Below, piece by piece: positions 3,328 to 24,277 of a DNA stretch of 64,000 nt. This stretch comes from an uncultured Gammaproteobacteria bacterium (lineage in GTDB: Bacteria; Patescibacteriota; Patescibacteriia; SG8-24; DYFX01), in contig CAYNUS010000004.1 in NCBI GenBank assembly GCA_964400625.1, forward strand, positions 26,164-90,163, read 5' to 3'. A program made the position numbers and the translations under genes. The notes under the pieces were generated by a model. The model ran no database searches, was not told where the DNA came from, and saw nothing but the letters and a program-made list of their open reading frames with translations. Numbering within the stretch: position 1 is the stretch's first letter; each line of letters opens with the position of its first letter.

Positions 3328-4230
3328 TTATGCGTTGGCGAGCGCGGCGCGCCCGGCGGAGATTTCCGCGATCTCTTGAGTGATGCCGGCCTGGCGTGCC
3401 TGGTTGAAGGTGAGGCGGAGGTCGTCGATCATGTCGGCGGCGGCGTCCGTGGCGTTCTTCATCGCCAGCATGCGCGCCGAGTGCTCCGAGGCGAGCGATT
3501 CGAGGACGGCCTGGTAGAGCTGGGCCTCGGCCACGCGCGGCAGGAGCTGGTCGAGGACGGTGCGCGCGTCGGGTTCGAAGACGTATTCCTCGGCGGCCTT
3601 GGCGTTCGCGTGGACCTCCTCGTGTCCGCGGACCTCGCCGAGCTCGCTGTCGCGCGTGAGCGGGAGCAGCGTCTTGGCGCGGGGCTTCTGGAGGATCGAG
3701 GAGACGAAGTCCGTGTAGATGACGGCGACCTCGCCGTACTCCCCCGCCGTGAAGCCGTTCCTGGCGAGGCGCGCCAGCGGGCGGACCTTCGTGACCGGAG
3801 GGGCGCCGCCGGCGAGCACGTCGCCGAACGAGGCCTTGAGGGGGAGCTTCCGGCGCCGCGCCCACGCCTCGCCGCGGCGGCCGATGGCGATGACGTCGAC
3901 GGAGCCTTCCGGCCGCGAGCGGATGAACTCGTTCGCGACGCGGATCACCTGGGCGTTGAAGCCTCCGCAGAGGCCGCGGTCCGAGGTGACGAGGATCGCC
4001 AGCGCGCGCCCGGACTCCGGCTTCTTGAGGAGCGGATGCGCCTCCTCGCCCCTCTGCTCCAGCCGTGCGACCAGGCTCCACGCCATCTGCGCGTAGGGAC
4101 GCGAAGACAGCACGGCCGAGACGGCCTTGCGCATCTTCGAGGCAGCGACCAGTTCCATCGCCTTCGTGATCTTCTTCGTGTTCACGACGGACTTGATGCG
4201 GCGGTTGATGGCTTTCGTGTTGACTCCCAT
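3328..4230 (-). CDS. atpG: F0F1 ATP synthase subunit gamma
   Basis: 300 aa starting MGVNTKAINRRIKSVVNTKKITKAMELVAASKMRKA, the classic gamma N-terminus. Confidence 0.95.
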   Translation of the reverse strand: MGVNTKAINRRIKSVVNTKKITKAMELVAASKMRKAVSAVLSSRPYAQMAWSLVARLEQRGEEAHPLLKKPESGRALAILVTSDRGLCGGFNAQVIRVANEFIRSRPEGSVDVIAIGRRGEAWARRRKLPLKASFGDVLAGGAPPVTKVRPLARLARNGFTAGEYGEVAVIYTDFVSSILQKPRAKTLLPLTRDSELGEVRGHEEVHANAKAAEEYVFEPDARTVLDQLLPRVAEAQLYQAVLESLASEHSARMLAMKNATDAAADMIDDLRLTFNQARQAGITQEIAEISAGRAALANA

Positions 4231-4250
4231 GGCGCGCGTTCGGTCGGGAC

Positions 4251-5765
4251 TTAGACGGTCTTCTTGTATTCGGCGATGGCTTCCTTCAGCTCGGCTTCGA
4301 TGTCCGGCTCGAGCGCCTTCTTCTCCTTCAGCTTCTTCATGAGCTCGGCGCGGGAGGCTTTGAGATACCGGTGGAAGCCGTCCTCCCAGTCGCGGACCTT
4401 GTCGATGGCGACGTCGTCGATGAGGCCGTTGGTCACCGCGTAGATGACGGCGGCCTGGTGCTCGAACGGCATCGGCTGGTACTGCGGCTGCTTCAGGATC
4501 TCGACCGTGCGGCGGCCGCGCTCGATCTGCGAGCGCGTCGTCTCGTCGAGATCGGAGGCGAACTGGGCGAAGGCTTCGAGCTCGCGGAACTGCGCGAGGT
4601 CGAGGCGCAGGCGTCCGGCGACCTTCTTCATGACCTTCGTCTGGGCGGCGCCGCCGACGCGCGAGACCGAGAGGCCGACGTTCACGGCCGGGCGGATGCC
4701 GCGGTAGAACAGGTCGCCTTCGAGGTAGATCTGGCCGTCGGTGATGGAAATGACGTTCGTCGGGATGTAGGCGGAGACGTCGCCGGCCTGCGTCTCGATG
4801 ATCGGGAGCGCGGTGAGCGATCCGCCGCCGTGCTCCTTGTTGCGGCAGGCGGCGCGCTCGAGGAGGCGCGAGTGCAGGTAGAAGACGTCGCCCGGATAGG
4901 CTTCGCGGCCCGGCGGGCGCTTCAGGATGAGCGAGATCTGGCGGTAGGCCCAGGCGTGCTTGGAGAGGTCGTCATACACGACGAGCGCGTCCTGGCCCTT
5001 GTCCATGAAGTATTCGCCGATGGCGGCGCCGGCGTACGGCGCGAGGTACGACATCGAGGCGGGGTCGGAGGCGCCGGCCACGACGATGACGGTGTAGTCC
5101 ATCGCGCCCGCTTCCTCGAGCTTCGCCATGATGCGCGCGATCTTCGATTCCTTCTGGCCGATGGCGACGTAGATGCACGTCACGCCCGCGCCCTTCTGGT
5201 TGATGATGGTGTCGACCGCGATGGCGGTCTTGCCGGTCTGGCGGTCGCCGATGATGAGCTCGCGCTGGCCGCGGCCGATCGGGACCATCGCGTCGATGGC
5301 CTTCACGCCGGTCTGGAGCGGGACGCCGACGGGCTCGCGGGTGACGACGCCGGGGGCGACCTTCTCGATCGGATAAGACTTGCCGCCCTTGATCGGGCCC
5401 TTGCCGTCGAGCGGACGGCCGAGCGGATCGACGACGCGGCCGATGAAGGCGTCGGAGACGTCGATCGAGAGGATCTTGCCCGTCGAGCGGACGGTGTCCC
5501 CTTCCTTCAGGTGCTTGGACTCGCCGAGCACGATGGCGCCGACGGTCTCCTCTTCCAGGTTGAGCGCCAGGCCGTAGGTCGGCTCCTTGCCGTCCGGTCC
5601 CGGGAACTCGAGCATCTCCGAAGACATGGCCTCGGTGAGGCCGGTCATGCGGACGACGCCGTCGCCGGATTCGACGATCGTGCCGACCTTCTCGGCCTTG
5701 GCGTCGACCGAGGCCTCGGAGATCTGCTTCTTCAGCGCTTCGATGATGAATTCTTTGGTGGCCAT
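4251..5765 (-). CDS. atpA: F0F1 ATP synthase subunit alpha
   Basis: 504 aa with GDRQTGKT P-loop. Confidence 0.97.
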
Positions 5766-17006: not shown

Positions 17007-17096
17007 GTCATCCCGAGCCTGCGCATTTCGCGCGGGCGTCAGGGATCTCTTTAAAAAGCGATTCCTATCGCCCCGCACCGCGGGGCTCGGAATGAC
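17007..17096. repeat. palindromic intergenic element, copy 2
   Basis: GTCATCCCGAGC...GCTCGGAATGAC termini. Shares the internal AGGGATCYTTTTAAAAGCGATTCCTA block with copy 6. Confidence 0.7.
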
Positions 17097-18280: not shown

Positions 18281-18312
18281 ATGCGGTCATGCTAACTGCC
18301 CCACCCGCTTTT

Positions 18313-18398
18313 GTCATCCTGAGCGGAGCGCAGCGGAGTCGAAGGATCCATCGGCTCGATATCCGGAGAATGGATCCCTCGGCTTCGCTCGGGATGAC
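18313..18398. repeat. palindromic intergenic element, copy 3
   Basis: GTCATCCTGAGCGGAGCGCAGCGGAG...CTCGGCTTCGCTCGGGATGAC. Confidence 0.65.
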
Positions 18399-18466
18399 GA
18401 AAACAGGAAAAGAAAAAACTCCGCCATGCTTTTTACGGAGCCCTTTCCTCCTTCGGTTTTCCGTCC

Positions 18467-18691
18467 CTACATCGCGGTCGCGTCGGCGACGGCGAGTTCG
18501 GTCGCGCCGCAGAGTCCGCATTCGATGCCGAGGTCTTCCTTGCGGATCTCGCCGCACGATTCGCAGAACAGCGCACCGTCCATCTCGTCGATCGAGGCGG
18601 AGCTGCAGCGCTCGCAGCGGTATGCGATATCCTTGCCGTTCAGTTCGCCGCAGTACGCGCAGGCGTACGACATTCCCATACGAAAGATCAC
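18467..18691 (-). CDS. zinc-ribbon domain small protein
   Basis: 74 aa with four CxxC pairs (CAYCGELNGKDIAYRCERC...CESCGEI...CGLCG). The first start may be one of the internal Mets. Confidence 0.5.
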   Translation of the reverse strand: MIFRMGMSYACAYCGELNGKDIAYRCERCSSASIDEMDGALFCESCGEIRKEDLGIECGLCGATELAVADATAM

Positions 18692-19459: not shown

Positions 19460-19553
19460 GTCATTCCTGCGCAGGCAGGAATCCAGTACCGAAACACAGA
19501 CATCAAATGTTTAGCTGCTCGTGGAACTGGGTTCCAGCTTTCGCTGGAATGAC
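19460..19553. repeat. palindromic intergenic element, copy 4
   Basis: TGTCATTCCTGCGCAGGCAGGAATCC...GGTTCCAGCTTTCGCTGGAATGACA. Confidence 0.65.
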
Positions 19554-19753
19554 ATGACAAGAAACCATAACCCATCTTTTATGAGCAGGAGGAAGTTCAA
19601 ATCGATGTATCGCCAGCTGGTCGGGCACGTCGTGGATTGGTTCGAAATCGCGGAATATGAGGAGAAAGTGGATTCCCTCGCGTCGTAGACGTTCTTGGGA
19701 GGGGTTTGCTATGCTTGAACCCGTCCCTAACGCACACGTACGCACCGTCTTTT

Positions 19754-20359
19754 ATGTCAGAACTGCAAGTCAAACCCCTCAAGTATAAGGAACTGCCCGG
19801 ATTGTCCGAGAAGCAGCTTTCGGAGCACCACGACGTGCTCTACGCCGGCTACGTCAAGAAGACCAACGAGATCCGCGGCAAGCTCGCCACGGTCTCCCTG
19901 GAGGGCGTGAACGCCACGCACAGCGATCTCCGCGAGCTCAAGCTCGAGGAGACGTTCGCGTTGAACGGCGTGAAGCTCCATGAGCGCTATTTCGACAACC
20001 TCGGCGGCAAGGGCGGCGCGCCCGAAGGCGTCGCGGCCGACTGGATCATGGAAGACTTCGGCTCCTACGAGAAGTGGCAGGCCGAATTTTCCGCCTGCGG
20101 CATGGCCGCGCGCGGCTGGGTCGTGCTGGCCTTCGACCTCGAGGAGAAGCGCCTCATGAACGTCGTCTGCGACGTCCACAACCAGGGCGGCGTCTGGGGC
20201 CAGGTCCCGCTCCTCGTCCTCGACGTCTACGAGCACGCCTACTTCCTCGACTACGCCACCGCCCGCAAGAAGTACCTGGAGACCTTCACCCAGAACGTCG
20301 ACTGGTCCGCCGTGAACGCGCAAATCGAGAAGTTTGACCTCGCGAAGTACCGAAGTTAA
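19754..20359 (+). CDS. Fe/Mn family superoxide dismutase
   Basis: 201 aa from the ATG. Has the conserved His pair near the N-terminus and C-terminal DVYEHAYFLDY (SOD signature DxWEHAYY-like). A TTG at 19706 is an alternative start. Confidence 0.75.
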   Translation: MSELQVKPLKYKELPGLSEKQLSEHHDVLYAGYVKKTNEIRGKLATVSLEGVNATHSDLRELKLEETFALNGVKLHERYFDNLGGKGGAPEGVAADWIMEDFGSYEKWQAEFSACGMAARGWVVLAFDLEEKRLMNVVCDVHNQGGVWGQVPLLVLDVYEHAYFLDYATARKKYLETFTQNVDWSAVNAQIEKFDLAKYRS

Positions 20360-20410
20360 GATGAAGCCTCGCCTCCACGGCGAGGCTTCTGCCATTAACC
20401 GCATCCATCT

Positions 20411-20923
20411 ATGACGTTCATCGGCCAGAAGGCGCCGGAGTTCAAGCTCCAGGGCGTCTCCCACGAGACGTTCGAGCACCACGCGCTCTCCGACTACAAG
20501 GGCAAGTGGGTCGTCCTGTTCTTCTACCCGCGCGACTTCACCTTCATCTGCCCCACCGAGATCACCGGCTACTCCAAGGCGGACGACGCCTTCAAGAAGC
20601 TGAACGCCCAGGTGCTCGGCGTCTCCACCGACTCCGCCTGGTCCCACAAGGCGTGGCTCAAGGAGCTCGGCGCCCTCAAGTACCCGCTCTTGGCCGACGT
20701 CACCCAGAAGGTCTCCGCCGCCTACGGCGTGCTCGACGAGACCGAAGGCGAAGCCATCCGCGGCACCTTCATCATCGATCCCGAAGGCACCGTGAAGTAC
20801 GCCCTCTACCACGACAACAACGTCGGCCGCTCCGTGAAGGAGACCCTCCGCGTCCTGGAGGCGCTCCAGACGGGCGAGAAGTGCCCGGTGGAGTGGAATC
20901 CGGGTGAGAAGACGTTGGGGTAA
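20411..20923 (+). CDS. peroxiredoxin (AhpC/Prx1 type)
   Basis: 170 aa with FTFICPTE peroxidatic Cys motif and a resolving Cys near the C-terminus (EKCPVEW). Confidence 0.85.
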   Translation: MTFIGQKAPEFKLQGVSHETFEHHALSDYKGKWVVLFFYPRDFTFICPTEITGYSKADDAFKKLNAQVLGVSTDSAWSHKAWLKELGALKYPLLADVTQKVSAAYGVLDETEGEAIRGTFIIDPEGTVKYALYHDNNVGRSVKETLRVLEALQTGEKCPVEWNPGEKTLG

Positions 20924-20932
20924 GAGAGAACG

Positions 20933-20959
20933 AAAAACCGGCCTTGCGGCCGGTTTTTT
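20933..20959. terminator. bidirectional Rho-independent terminator
   Basis: AAAAACCGGCC-ttgc-GGCCGGTTTTTT, between the convergent genes. Confidence 0.6.
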
Positions 20960-21320
20960 AGTGTCTCGGACTTTGCACGTTTTTATATTTTGGACCATCG
21001 TCCCGTTTCGGAACTTTCACATAGTCGCGAGGTGATTTCACCGGCCTGATAGCTGGAGCGCTCTTATGCTCTACTGGACGGCCACGAACGACTTTCATAG
21101 TAGATACTCCACCACGAAAAGTTGAAGCGGTTATTTTGGGTCCAACGTGGCGAATTCTTTTTTTGCGCAGTTTCGTACGAACCTCGCAGTTTACTGAACA
21201 AAAATTGCTGGGAAAGGCTGCGAATTTCCCGCATCCATTGCATCCCCGATTCCGGTTGCCATTCGTACGCTTCGCAACCGAGGGTCGCGGCAAATAAATA
21301 TACGAGATCTTTTTCGACAT
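20958..21320 (-). CDS. hypothetical basic Cys-rich protein in a low-GC (about 47%) segment
   Basis: 120-aa ORF 3 nt downstream of pepA. Contains CNGCGK...CSVNC (a possible zinc ribbon) and is very Lys/Arg rich. GC is far below the surrounding 68%. Confidence 0.45.
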   Translation of the reverse strand: MSKKISYIYLPRPSVAKRTNGNRNRGCNGCGKFAAFPSNFCSVNCEVRTKLRKKRIRHVGPKITASTFRGGVSTMKVVRGRPVEHKSAPAIRPVKSPRDYVKVPKRDDGPKYKNVQSPRH

Positions 21321-21322
21321 AG

Positions 21323-22816
21323 TTACACCCTCCTCAAAAACTCAAGTAGCAACCTCGCCCCATACCCGCTCGCCCCCCACGGCCGCTCGTCCTGATAGTC
21401 CTTCTCGTTGTAGGACGGCCCCGCGATGTCGAGGTGGGCCCAGCTGGGGGTTTCGCCGATGAATTCCTTGAGGAACAGTCCGGCGGTGATGGTGCCGGCG
21501 CCGCCTTTGCTGCCGATGTTCTTGAGGTCGGCGTGGCGGCTCTTCACCTGCTCGGCGTAGGGCGCGTAGAGCGGGAGCCTCCAGAGCGGCTCGCCCGAGG
21601 TCGCGGAGGCCTGTTCGAGGCGCGCGGCGAGCTTGTCGTCGTCGGTGAGCATGCCGGTGATGTCCTGTCCGAGCGCGACGATGCAGGCGCCGGTGAGCGT
21701 CGCCAGGTCGATCATCATGTCGGGCTTGAGCTGGGAACCGTAGAAGAGCGTGTCAGCGAGCGTCACGCGGCCTTCGGCGTCGGTGTTCAGGATCTCGATG
21801 GTCTTGCCAGACATCGTCTTCACTATGTCGCCGGGGCGGATAGCGTGGCCCGACGGCATGTTCTCGACCATGGCGCAGATGCCGTGGACCTCGACGGGGA
21901 TCTTCAGCGCGGTGAGCGCCCGGAAGACAGCCAGCACGGCTGCGGCACCCGCCATATCGATCTTCATGTCCATCATCCCGTCGGCGGGCTTGAGCGAAAG
22001 GCCGCCCGAATCGAACGTCACGCCCTTTCCGACCAAGACGACGCGCTTCTTCGCCTTCACGGCGGGTTTGTAGGCGAGGTGGATCATCTTCGGCTCGTGC
22101 GCGGAACCTTGCGCCACGGCCAAGACGCCGCCGGCGCCCATCTCCTGGAGCTCCTTGCGGCCGAAGATCTTGATGGTCATGCGCTTCTGTCCCACGGCCA
22201 GCGCGATGGCTTCCTGCACGAAGGTGGCAGGGTGCATCTCGAGCGCCGGGGTGTTCACGAGGTTCCGCGCGTACGCGGAAGCGCCGGCGAAGGCCTGGGC
22301 GTCGGCCACGGCCTTGTCGAAGAACTTGGCGTTGATGGCGAGCGCCGTGAGCAGCGCGACCTCTTCCAACGGCTTGGCCTTCTTGTCCTCCTTATAGCGG
22401 TCGTAGCGGTACGCGCCGAGGATGAGGCCCTCCGCGGCCGCCTGGATGGCCTCGCCGACCTTCGGGCTGGCCTTCTCGAACGGCAGCCAGAGTGCCAGCG
22501 TCGCGGCCTTGTTGGCGCCGGCCAGCTTCGCCGCGCGCGCCGTGGCGCTCCGCAGGCGCTTCAGATCGAACCCTTTCCGCTCGCCGAGGCCGAGGAGCGC
22601 CAGCTTGCGGTACGGCAGCTTGCCGTGGGTATGGATGACGAGCGTCGCTCCGACCGAGGCCTTGTACTCCTCTTCCTTCACATGGACCGAAAGATGCCCG
22701 CCCAGCGCGGCATCGAGCTTGGAGACCGGCGTGATCTCCGAACCTTCAAAGACGCCGACGATGAGGATTTCAGCTTTGGCTTCCTGAGGAAGCGCGGTGG
22801 AGCGGAGGATGCGCAT
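21323..22816 (-). CDS. pepA: leucyl aminopeptidase (M17)
   Basis: 497 aa with NTDAEGRL signature and metal ligands. Confidence 0.9.
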   Translation of the reverse strand: MRILRSTALPQEAKAEILIVGVFEGSEITPVSKLDAALGGHLSVHVKEEEYKASVGATLVIHTHGKLPYRKLALLGLGERKGFDLKRLRSATARAAKLAGANKAATLALWLPFEKASPKVGEAIQAAAEGLILGAYRYDRYKEDKKAKPLEEVALLTALAINAKFFDKAVADAQAFAGASAYARNLVNTPALEMHPATFVQEAIALAVGQKRMTIKIFGRKELQEMGAGGVLAVAQGSAHEPKMIHLAYKPAVKAKKRVVLVGKGVTFDSGGLSLKPADGMMDMKIDMAGAAAVLAVFRALTALKIPVEVHGICAMVENMPSGHAIRPGDIVKTMSGKTIEILNTDAEGRVTLADTLFYGSQLKPDMMIDLATLTGACIVALGQDITGMLTDDDKLAARLEQASATSGEPLWRLPLYAPYAEQVKSRHADLKNIGSKGGAGTITAGLFLKEFIGETPSWAHLDIAGPSYNEKDYQDERPWGASGYGARLLLEFLRRV

Positions 22817-22882
22817 ATGCGAAATGAGGTGACTTCAGAGCCACCTTAGTGCCGATTCATGGCGCGGTCAATCCAAAAACAT

Positions 22883-22974
22883 GTCACCCCTGCGAAAGCA
22901 GGGGCCCATTTCCTTCAGCGACTTTTGAAGGTTTCCGCTGGGGAAATGGGTCCCGGGTCTCCGCCCGGGATGAC
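22883..22974. repeat. palindromic intergenic element, copy 5
   Basis: GTCACCCCTGCGAAAGCAGGGGCCCATTTCC...GGAAATGGGTCCCGGGTCTCCGCCCGGGATGAC. Confidence 0.65.
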
Positions 22975-22975
22975 A

Positions 22976-23275
22976 TTAAAGAGCGCCCTCCTTCTTCAAC
23001 AGCGCCAGCTTCTTCTTCGGCCCTCCGAACGCGTAATCCCCCACTTTCCCGTCGGCCCGGATGACGCGATGGCACGGCACGCGCTTCGTGTCGGTGTTGC
23101 GGCTCATGATGGTGCCGACGGCGCGGGCGGCGCCGGGGCGTCCGGCGGCCTTGGCGACCTCCCCGTAGGTGCGTGTCTCGCCGCGCGGGATCTTCGCCAC
23201 GACGGCGTAGACCTTACGCGCGAACGGCGTGTCAGGCTCCGAGCGCCTTGAGGTCGGCGAGGACTTCTTCGGCAT
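22976..23275 (-). CDS. methylated-DNA-[protein]-cysteine S-methyltransferase, DNA-binding domain protein (MGMT family)
   Basis: C-terminal 83 aa carry the PCHRV active-site motif and the HTH (YGEVA). The start is uncertain because the upstream frame overlaps bcp. Confidence 0.6.
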   Translation of the reverse strand: MPKKSSPTSRRSEPDTPFARKVYAVVAKIPRGETRTYGEVAKAAGRPGAARAVGTIMSRNTDTKRVPCHRVIRADGKVGDYAFGGPKKKLALLKKEGAL

Positions 23276-23699
23276 GCTCTTTCGGTTTGACGCCTTCATA
23301 GATCTTGGCGATCTTCCCTTCCGGGTCGATGAGATACGAGTTACGCAGGATGCCCATGTATTCGCGGCCCATGAACTTCTTCTTGGCCCAGACGCCATAG
23401 GCGCCGAGCATCTCCTTCTTCTCGTCGGAGAGGAGCGTGAACGGCAGCTCGTACTTCTCGGCGAACTTGGCGTGCTTCTTCACGGGGTCAGCGCTCACGC
23501 CGAGCACGACCGCTTTCATCTTCTTGAACTTTGGAAAATTGTCGCGGAGCGTGCAGGCTTCGACCGTGCAGCCCGGCGTGTCGTCCTTGGGATAGAAGTA
23601 CAGCAGGACCCACTGGCCGAGGTAGTCCTTCAGGTCATGTTCCTTCCCGGCCTGGTCCGGCAGGCGGAATCCAGGGGCTTTCTGTCCGATCTTCAGCAT
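23232..23699 (-). CDS. bcp: thioredoxin-dependent thiol peroxidase (Bcp / PrxQ)
   Basis: MLKIGQKAPGF... with the PGCT peroxidatic Cys motif. About 155 aa. Confidence 0.85.
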   Translation of the reverse strand: MLKIGQKAPGFRLPDQAGKEHDLKDYLGQWVLLYFYPKDDTPGCTVEACTLRDNFPKFKKMKAVVLGVSADPVKKHAKFAEKYELPFTLLSDEKKEMLGAYGVWAKKKFMGREYMGILRNSYLIDPEGKIAKIYEGVKPKEHAEEVLADLKALGA

Positions 23700-23819
23700 A
23701 GAGATTCGTTTGGTGAGTATTCCACCCCGGCGGAGGCCGGGGACCACGCTAGTGGGGGTCCGAATCGTTGGGGGGTGGACCCCGTCCTTCGACGGGGTGG
23801 TTTATGATATCATAGCCCC

Positions 23820-24189: not shown

Positions 24190-24277
24190 GTCATCCCGAG
24201 CGAGGCATTCCAGCCGAGCGGTAGGGATCCTTTTTAAAAGCGATTCCTACCGCGCGCCTTCGCGCGCTCGGAATGAC
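24190..24277. repeat. palindromic intergenic element, copy 6
   Basis: GTCATCCCGAGCGAGG...GGTAGGGATCCTTTTTAAAAGCGATTCCTACC...GCGCTCGGAATGAC. The internal block is nearly identical to copy 2. Confidence 0.7.

Follow-up and report, generated by a model that had tools for sequence, protein, structure and literature searches.

The stretch of DNA analysed here, 64,000 nt long and referred to as the window, carries a leucyl aminopeptidase gene (pepA) and a convergent peroxiredoxin gene, with a small open reading frame (ORF) on the pepA strand and a hairpin lying between the two (Table 1). The pepA stop codon (TAA, 21325-21323) is followed by two bases, CT, and then directly by the ATG of the ORF, so that the first base of the ATG lies 3 nt past the stop, the spacing already given in a preliminary description of this DNA. 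At its other end, the ORF terminates with a TAA that falls inside the A-tract of the hairpin. The hairpin is perfect, is located 10 nt from the stop of the peroxiredoxin gene and occurs in a single copy within the window, and an equivalent hairpin adjoins the peroxiredoxin gene in all relatives. Since a T-run is found on either strand (minus strand by prediction, plus strand read directly) and the hairpin is placed between convergent genes, we read it as a bidirectional terminator, in agreement with the preliminary description.

Table 1. Features between pepA and the convergent peroxiredoxin gene in the window, and low-GC cassettes found at the same position in relatives (coordinates of the window unless a contig is named or the row concerns a relative).
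Feature	Position	Strand	Basis or remarks
AhpC/TSA peroxiredoxin gene, convergent	20411..20923	+	Pfam AhpC-TSA, 9.6e-44; synteny conserved
Hairpin AAAAACCGGCC-GCAA-GGCCGGTTTTT, bidirectional intrinsic terminator	20933..20958	.	11-pair stem and T-run
ORF, 120-aa orphan, pI 11.2	20958..21320	-	ATG 21320-21318, TAA 20960-20958; spans the insertion end to end
Low-GC insertion, strain-specific	20959..21322	.	break of blastn colinearity and composition
Basic tail of ORF product, residues 46-120, Lys/Arg/Pro/Val-rich	20961..21185	-	composition; no regular structure predicted
Putative C4 zinc-knuckle motif, residues 27-45, CNGC-x10-CSVNC	21186..21242	-	translation; FCS signature F40-C41-S42
pepA, M17 leucyl aminopeptidase	21323..22816	-	Pfam Peptidase_M17, 1.4e-122; Peptidase_M17_N, 6e-29
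AGGAGG, Shine-Dalgarno-like	21329..21334	-	sequence reading; 8 nt 5′ of ATG, in last pepA codons
L001/L038/L039 cassette (PepA 93% identical)	L001 7497-7838	pepA strand	113 aa; GC 50%
L037 cassette (PepA 91% identical)	4016-4549	pepA strand	177 aa, hydrophobic C-terminus (TM); GC 46%
L006/L034 cassette (PepA 71% identical)	L006 3519-3689	pepA strand	56-aa membrane peptide
L030 cassette	3′ of pepA	pepA strand	139 aa and 53 aa; GC 37-50% per 100-nt windows
L035 cassette	3′ of pepA	pepA strand	192 aa; local GC 33-48% per 100-nt windows

The segment that separates the pepA stop codon from the terminator shared with the peroxiredoxin gene is 364 nt long and has a GC content of 47.9%, compared to 66.0% for the whole window. 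No other 360-nt stretch of the 64 kb is as low in GC, and no other low-GC segment is as long. The ORF has a GC content of 47.7%, distributed over the three codon positions as 0.50/0.50/0.44. In the genes neighbouring the ORF the GC content at third positions (GC3) is 0.89-0.96, and in all native ORFs of the window (about 60) it ranges from 0.79 to 0.97. The preliminary description had noted a 120-aa ORF here, with about 47% GC in surroundings of about 68%; the ORF and its features are all present and the first figure holds, but the surroundings are closer to 66%.

We compared the locus with syntenic relatives collected through PepA from GTDB genomes, JGI metagenomes and Logan/ENA assemblies. 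Judging from these PepA relatives, the host of the window is a high-GC, Candidatus Paceibacter-like member of the Patescibacteria, and the best named relative, with 93% PepA identity, is a Candidatus Paceibacter sp. All relatives keep a colinear gene order that runs from lexA through Fe/Mn-SOD, peroxiredoxin and the convergent pepA to MGMT and Bcp. Blastn colinearity with the relatives ends at 21323/21324 on one side and at 20958/20959 on the other, which sets the edges of the segment to the base; both junctions are clean and are flanked by the correct syntenic genes. Five relatives (L002, L004, L005, L007 and L041) display an insert-free layout in which pepA is followed by a few nucleotides, the terminator and the peroxiredoxin gene: L007 has 2 nt in place of the 364 nt of the window, while the gap is below 10 nt in L004 and L005 and amounts to 46 nt in L002 and L041. 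A further relative, L042, carries about 70 nt of non-coding DNA at this slot. Because insert-free relatives exist and the terminator is kept in all of them, the low-GC segment is an insertion between the stop codon and the terminator. In L041 (PepA 85% identical), we also observed that the peroxiredoxin gene 3′ of pepA is tandemly duplicated (3541-4699), giving two AhpC/TSA genes of 173 aa each.

Two explanations had been offered beforehand for the low GC content, namely a foreign origin and a small native regulator under strong selection for AT-rich codons. The comparison bears out the first, since the segment is missing in the syntenic relatives (2-46 nt there) and its GC3 of 0.44 shows no amelioration towards the value of about 0.9 to which this genome drives third positions, which agrees with a recent arrival. 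The second did not survive, because the gene is found in no syntenic relative, even at 93% and 91% PepA identity, and we reject a native, conserved AT-rich regulator on this ground. An artefact of assembly would likewise be hard to reconcile with clean junctions and correct syntenic flanks. The identical sequence recurs over 2.39 kb in a second assembly, Logan contig L029, possibly built from the same reads, and this recurrence counts against an artefact. We regard the native regulator or artefact as scarcely credible.

Other relatives carry different DNA in the same slot (Table 1). The 113-aa protein of the L001 cassette contains 4 CxxC pairs (8 Cys) and a C-terminal hydrophobic (TM) helix, and it has no similarity to the window ORF despite an identical junction with pepA, TAA-CT-ATG (TAACTATG). 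The 56-aa ORF of L006/L034 overlaps the pepA stop as ATGA, and the 53-aa protein of L030 has a Zn-ribbon pattern, CxxC...CxxxxC. L040 has in the slot a gene for inositol monophosphatase whose GC content is intermediate (54%), and L003/L036, L031 and L032 have there genes of normal GC content in either orientation. The low-GC cassette ORFs are all orphans and begin between -4 nt (the ATGA stop overlap) and 21 nt past the pepA stop. Comparison of the cassettes among themselves and with the window ORF revealed no resemblance, and searches for Pfam and PADLOC assignments of the cassettes in the relatives returned none.

Three sister lineages (100%, 93% and 91% PepA identity) thus differ in the low-GC mini-ORF cassette that each of them carries, and in these three the cassettes start 2-21 nt past the pepA stop and end at, or a few nucleotides before, the terminator. 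Since the three closest lineages have different cassettes and more distant ones are empty, the most economical reading is that the slot was empty ancestrally and was filled recently and independently in these lineages. A possible route would be an illegitimate capture followed by homologous exchange via the conserved flanks. Horizontal gene transfer and genomic islands have been documented in groundwater Patescibacteria (PMC12455944). Two marks of a genomic islet are present at the locus, a composition atypical for the host genome and absence from the syntenic position with variable cargo at the junction. A third mark, in the form of a donor, mobility genes or target-site repeats, was not found: no flanking direct repeats or target duplication border the insert, and neither an integrase nor a tRNA lies among the neighbouring genes. 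The segment itself shows no promoter-like site.

The preliminary description had proposed a homologue search for the ORF product, which we carried out at several levels and which leaves the ORF an orphan. A word-indexed protein search gave no homologue, and an exhaustive phmmer search of 1.84 billion protein representatives gave no credible one; two phmmer matches were rejected as compositional or repeat artefacts, being repetitive pseudo-proteins that lack the cysteine motif. Exact-sequence look-up of the ORF product and of the peroxiredoxin retrieved no record. Nothing was found when phages and plasmids were searched by tblastn and blastn, or in back-translated scans of viral and metagenome contigs, and the insert, compared by the same two programs with every fetched locus and with the window, matched only itself. 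Likewise, no viral relatives were found for the L037 and L035 cassettes, and the L001 protein matched only itself among 5.8 billion sequences.

In high-GC genomes, an island of low GC often proves to be an RNA gene, and the segment was also considered as a structured non-coding RNA or a small RNA derived from the pepA 3′-UTR. An Rfam search of positions 20000-22500 at E<=10 returned only terminator-like fragments of unrelated sRNA models, located on the hairpin, and no family reached the gathering score anywhere in the 64-kb window. The minus-strand fold of the insert gave a minimum free energy z-score of -2.77 with the terminator, compared to -1.55 once the terminator hairpin was removed. As the segment is conserved in no relative, it also lends the RNA no covariation support. 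We therefore reject a structured RNA as far as Rfam and folding tell and consider it very improbable; the Rfam search, named beforehand as a way to refute the ORF, left the ORF reading standing. As a separate observation, the window contains no tRNA, rRNA or riboswitch at the Rfam gathering score, which is notable for its size.

We then asked how far the ORF itself looks like a gene. The frame on the pepA strand is open over 120 of the 121 possible codons of the insert, and an open frame on the same strand at least as long as the ORF occurred in 0.9% of dinucleotide shuffles (p = 0.009). When the shuffle test was applied to five low-GC inserts (the window and 4 others, with L037 left out), frames on the pepA strand spanned the insert in 5/5, in L030 by two successive frames (Fisher combined p = 1.6e-7). 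In addition, the ATG occupies the first possible position, 8 nt past the AGGAGG. This motif is not specific evidence for coding, since insert-free relatives have GAGGAAG where the window has AGGAGG and it thus pre-exists the insert; Shine-Dalgarno usage in the window genome, tested as support for translation, was not clearly above background. The ORF is probably a translated gene.

The strongest alternative accepts a real foreign insertion and takes the ORF as non-functional, a non-coding remnant (of phage DNA, for example) that is open by chance. It draws on the lack of homologues, on the GC content, which is flat over the codon positions of the ORF and counts against coding, and on the shuffles, 3.6% of which contained a fully open frame when any of the six frames was allowed. 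In the Logan assembly with identical sequence (L029), moreover, no gene was called for the ORF, and AlphaFold2 (AF2) predictions for the product are not confident. Against it stand the strand-specific p value, the end-to-end filling in the 4 other independent inserts, the placement of the ATG and a cysteine layout that is rare among permutations and coincides with sub-threshold Pfam matches, as described below. On this evidence we judge a chance-open remnant rather unlikely. Gene callers were inconsistent on such low-GC mini-genes: two JGI contigs carry an identical L001-type insert (L038 3995-4470 and L039 2612-2953), and the 113-aa ORF was called in only one of them. Protein databases consequently under-sample these genes, and the missing homologues also remove any evolutionary test of purifying selection on the ORF.

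The ORF product has a mass of 13.5 kDa, contains 30 Lys and Arg among 120 residues and has a net charge of +25 and a pI of 11.2. Its only 4 cysteines are arranged as C27-x2-C30-x10-C41-x3-C45. Both traits named in the preliminary description, a very high Lys/Arg content and a CxxC...CxxxC cluster, are thereby confirmed, and a CX2C-X10-CX3C layout of all 4 Cys arose in a fraction of 7.6e-4 of residue permutations. The sole Pfam matches, both sub-threshold, lie exactly over the cysteine motif. DUF2116 (PF09889, 'probable treble clef') aligned residues 25-58 to profile positions 4-37 of 59 with 13.3-15.7 bits (E 0.015-0.083), which falls short of the gathering cut-off of 26.8 bits and suggests the same type of motif only. 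PLATZ (PF04640) matched with 14.6-16.1 bits (E 0.017-0.05) through the last ~30-38 positions (42-79) of its 79-position profile, corresponding to its C-terminal finger, and did not attain the cut-off of 25 bits set for the whole domain. The zf-FCS family was absent from the hmmscan of the ORF even at E<=10, a search in which HMMER filters drop many matches above E ~0.1, and the spacer of the ORF (C30-X9-F40, 9 residues) lies outside the 14-30 residues of the zf-FCS signature.

AF2 gave a 45-residue fragment containing the putative finger a pLDDT of 61, rising to ~72 in the core, with a long helix that begins at FCSxxC, as it does in treble-clef fingers, a fold made of a zinc knuckle, a beta-hairpin and a helix that contributes the last two zinc ligands from its N-terminus. 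The full-length prediction is unstructured, and its tail has no secondary structure and a pLDDT below 60. No fold match was obtained for the product, a sequence search of the PDB gave no match at E<=10, and PHROGs, NCBIfam and PADLOC returned nothing meaningful for the window ORF. The C4 motif of FCS type, the basic tail, the overall composition and the sub-threshold Pfam matches make binding of the product to nucleic acid plausible. FCS/treble-clef fingers are known to make both protein-protein and nucleic-acid contacts (PMC4083091; PMC4047054), and the motif therefore cannot tell which kind of partner the ORF product would have.

Together, these results favour, with a probability of roughly 0.55, a recent, strain-specific insertion of foreign low-GC DNA into a hypervariable slot, bringing with it a promoterless orphan gene for a putative zinc-knuckle protein. 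Under this reading, the ORF would be transcribed by read-through from pepA, having no promoter of its own, and its transcription would end at the old pepA terminator. Translation could start at the ATG 2 nt past the pepA stop, by re-initiation or coupling, 3′ of the pre-existing GAGGA-type motif. In the product, the cysteines would form one C4 zinc knuckle of FCS/treble-clef type (CX2C-X9-FCS-X2C). After it would come a basic helix (EVRTKLRKKRIRH) and then a long tail that is rich in Lys, Arg and Pro and probably disordered. Such an architecture would suit non-specific nucleic-acid binding or docking on an acidic partner, and the most likely role of the product would be that of a dispensable accessory factor that binds either nucleic acid or a protein partner.

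An origin of the gene de novo at the site accounts for some of the same observations. In that case non-genic AT-rich DNA would have been inserted or expanded 3′ of pepA, and the frame would have been recruited by read-through and the Shine-Dalgarno-like motif. The orphan status of both the window ORF and the L001 protein agrees with such an origin, as do the promoterless site directly past a stop, the GAGGA motif that pre-exists in all relatives and the basic, largely disordered sequence, a common trait of young genes. However, a CX2C...FCSX2C signature with a predicted helix is unlikely to come from random sequence, the composition resembles that of imported DNA, and an intermediate non-coding version was seen in no relative. 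We consider de novo birth improbable and retain the recent foreign insertion of an orphan gene as the preferred reading.

A more far-reaching proposal, which we put forward as decidedly speculative, is that the junction at which the terminator follows the pepA stop serves as a dedicated capture site for promoterless small-ORF cassettes in high-GC Paceibacteria. Orphan zinc-binding or membrane mini-proteins may be installed there repeatedly, frame-ready behind the resident Shine-Dalgarno-like motif, and may be exchanged faster than species diverge, by recombination that involves no recognisable integrase, attC or repeats. If true, the site would amount to a minimal, integron-like sampling of small proteins by ultra-small episymbionts, with host interaction or phage defence as conceivable uses.

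The preferred reading attributes the strongest compositional anomaly in the 64 kb to foreign DNA that was inserted recently together with an unannotated orphan gene, and to neither an RNA gene nor a native regulator. It also makes the slot between pepA and the peroxiredoxin gene a natural case, compact in scale, of orphan genes turning over rapidly at the end of an operon in streamlined Patescibacteria. Routine gene callers can miss such genes, as happened to the window ORF in Logan and to the L001-type ORF in one of two JGI contigs. Were expression to be shown, the ORF product would extend the bacterial repertoire of small zinc-finger proteins by an FCS-type finger that has a very short spacer and a basic tail.

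Elsewhere in the window, a 74-aa Cys-rich ORF with 4 CxxC pairs and a GC3 of 0.84 lies 5′ of lexA and divergent from it (18467-18691, minus strand). Its match to Pfam Zn_Ribbon_TF is weak (E 1.3e-4, below the cut-off), and its sequence points to a native small zinc-ribbon protein adjoining the SOS regulator lexA. A pair of REP-like intergenic repeats, 60 nt long and 73% identical, was found at 17023-17082 and 24205-24264. Further REP-like repeats, consisting of palindromic units with translations such as '...IPAKAGTQ...' and '...VIPSEAEGS...', are situated at ~18300-18600, 19500-19700 and 22850-22950. These repeats account for several other local GC dips in the window, and a copy is also present in L001 beside its cassette (GATCGCCGCCTGCGCGGGGATGACGG). 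Finally, the longest-ORF models of MGMT (DNA_binding_1; 22976-23398, minus strand) and of the Bcp-type peroxiredoxin (23232-23747, minus strand) overlap by ~170 nt; the annotated products of relatives are 77-110 aa long, and translation of MGMT probably begins at an ATG inside its model.

Among known proteins, the ORF product most resembles in layout the FCS/treble-clef fingers of the TRASH clan (zf-FCS, DUF2116, YacG/DUF329, L24e and the C-terminal finger of PLATZ), with which it shares the arrangement CX2C...F-C-S-X2-C and a second Cys pair from which a predicted helix starts. A basic segment comes after the putative finger, a trait of DUF2116-like proteins as well. The zf-FCS signature is CX2C-X14-30-FCS-X2C (PMC4047054), whereas the ORF has a spacer of 9 residues. 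None of the families of the clan is reached at its curated cut-off, no solved structure is matched by sequence or by fold, and the long Lys/Arg/Pro tail has no counterpart in these fingers. The E. coli DNA gyrase inhibitor YacG is a small zinc-finger protein with one FCS/treble-clef finger (PMC4083091). The ORF product is similarly a small stand-alone protein that combines one predicted finger of this type with an unstructured tail; the YacG family (DUF329) gave no Pfam match to it at E<=10. The tail of YacG is acidic, contains Trp and docks on GyrB, whereas that of the ORF product is strongly basic.

The cassettes of the slot bear some likeness to those of integrons. They are promoterless, consist of single small ORFs that fill the cassette and lie mostly in one orientation; the cargo at the one site differs between relatives and a hairpin is present at the 3′ end. 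Unlike in integrons, no intI lies near the slot, there is one cassette per genome, and some relatives carry genes of normal GC content on the opposite strand. The core sites of attC, R″ and R′, follow the consensus RYYYAAC/GTTRRRY. The hairpin at the slot is instead a 26-nt GC stem with A/T runs that lacks such cores. As no attC-like core, integrase or target duplication was found, a reading as an integron or mobile element was rejected.

A parallel is also provided by flexible islets and ORFans at a fixed junction of core genes, comparable to the 'morons' of phages. The window insert differs from these in its extremely small size, with one ORF in 364 nt, in the lack of a promoter, terminator, integrase, tRNA, direct repeats or mobility signature of its own, and in having cassettes that lie directly against the pepA stop and make use of the terminator already in place. 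It agrees with them in its un-ameliorated atypical composition, in a presence that varies among close relatives at one conserved junction of convergent core genes, and in a lineage-specific cargo of small proteins without known function. The kind of object found in the window is thus ordinary, an orphan gained by horizontal transfer within a flexible islet. What sets it apart is its unusually minimal form and the striking turnover at its junction.
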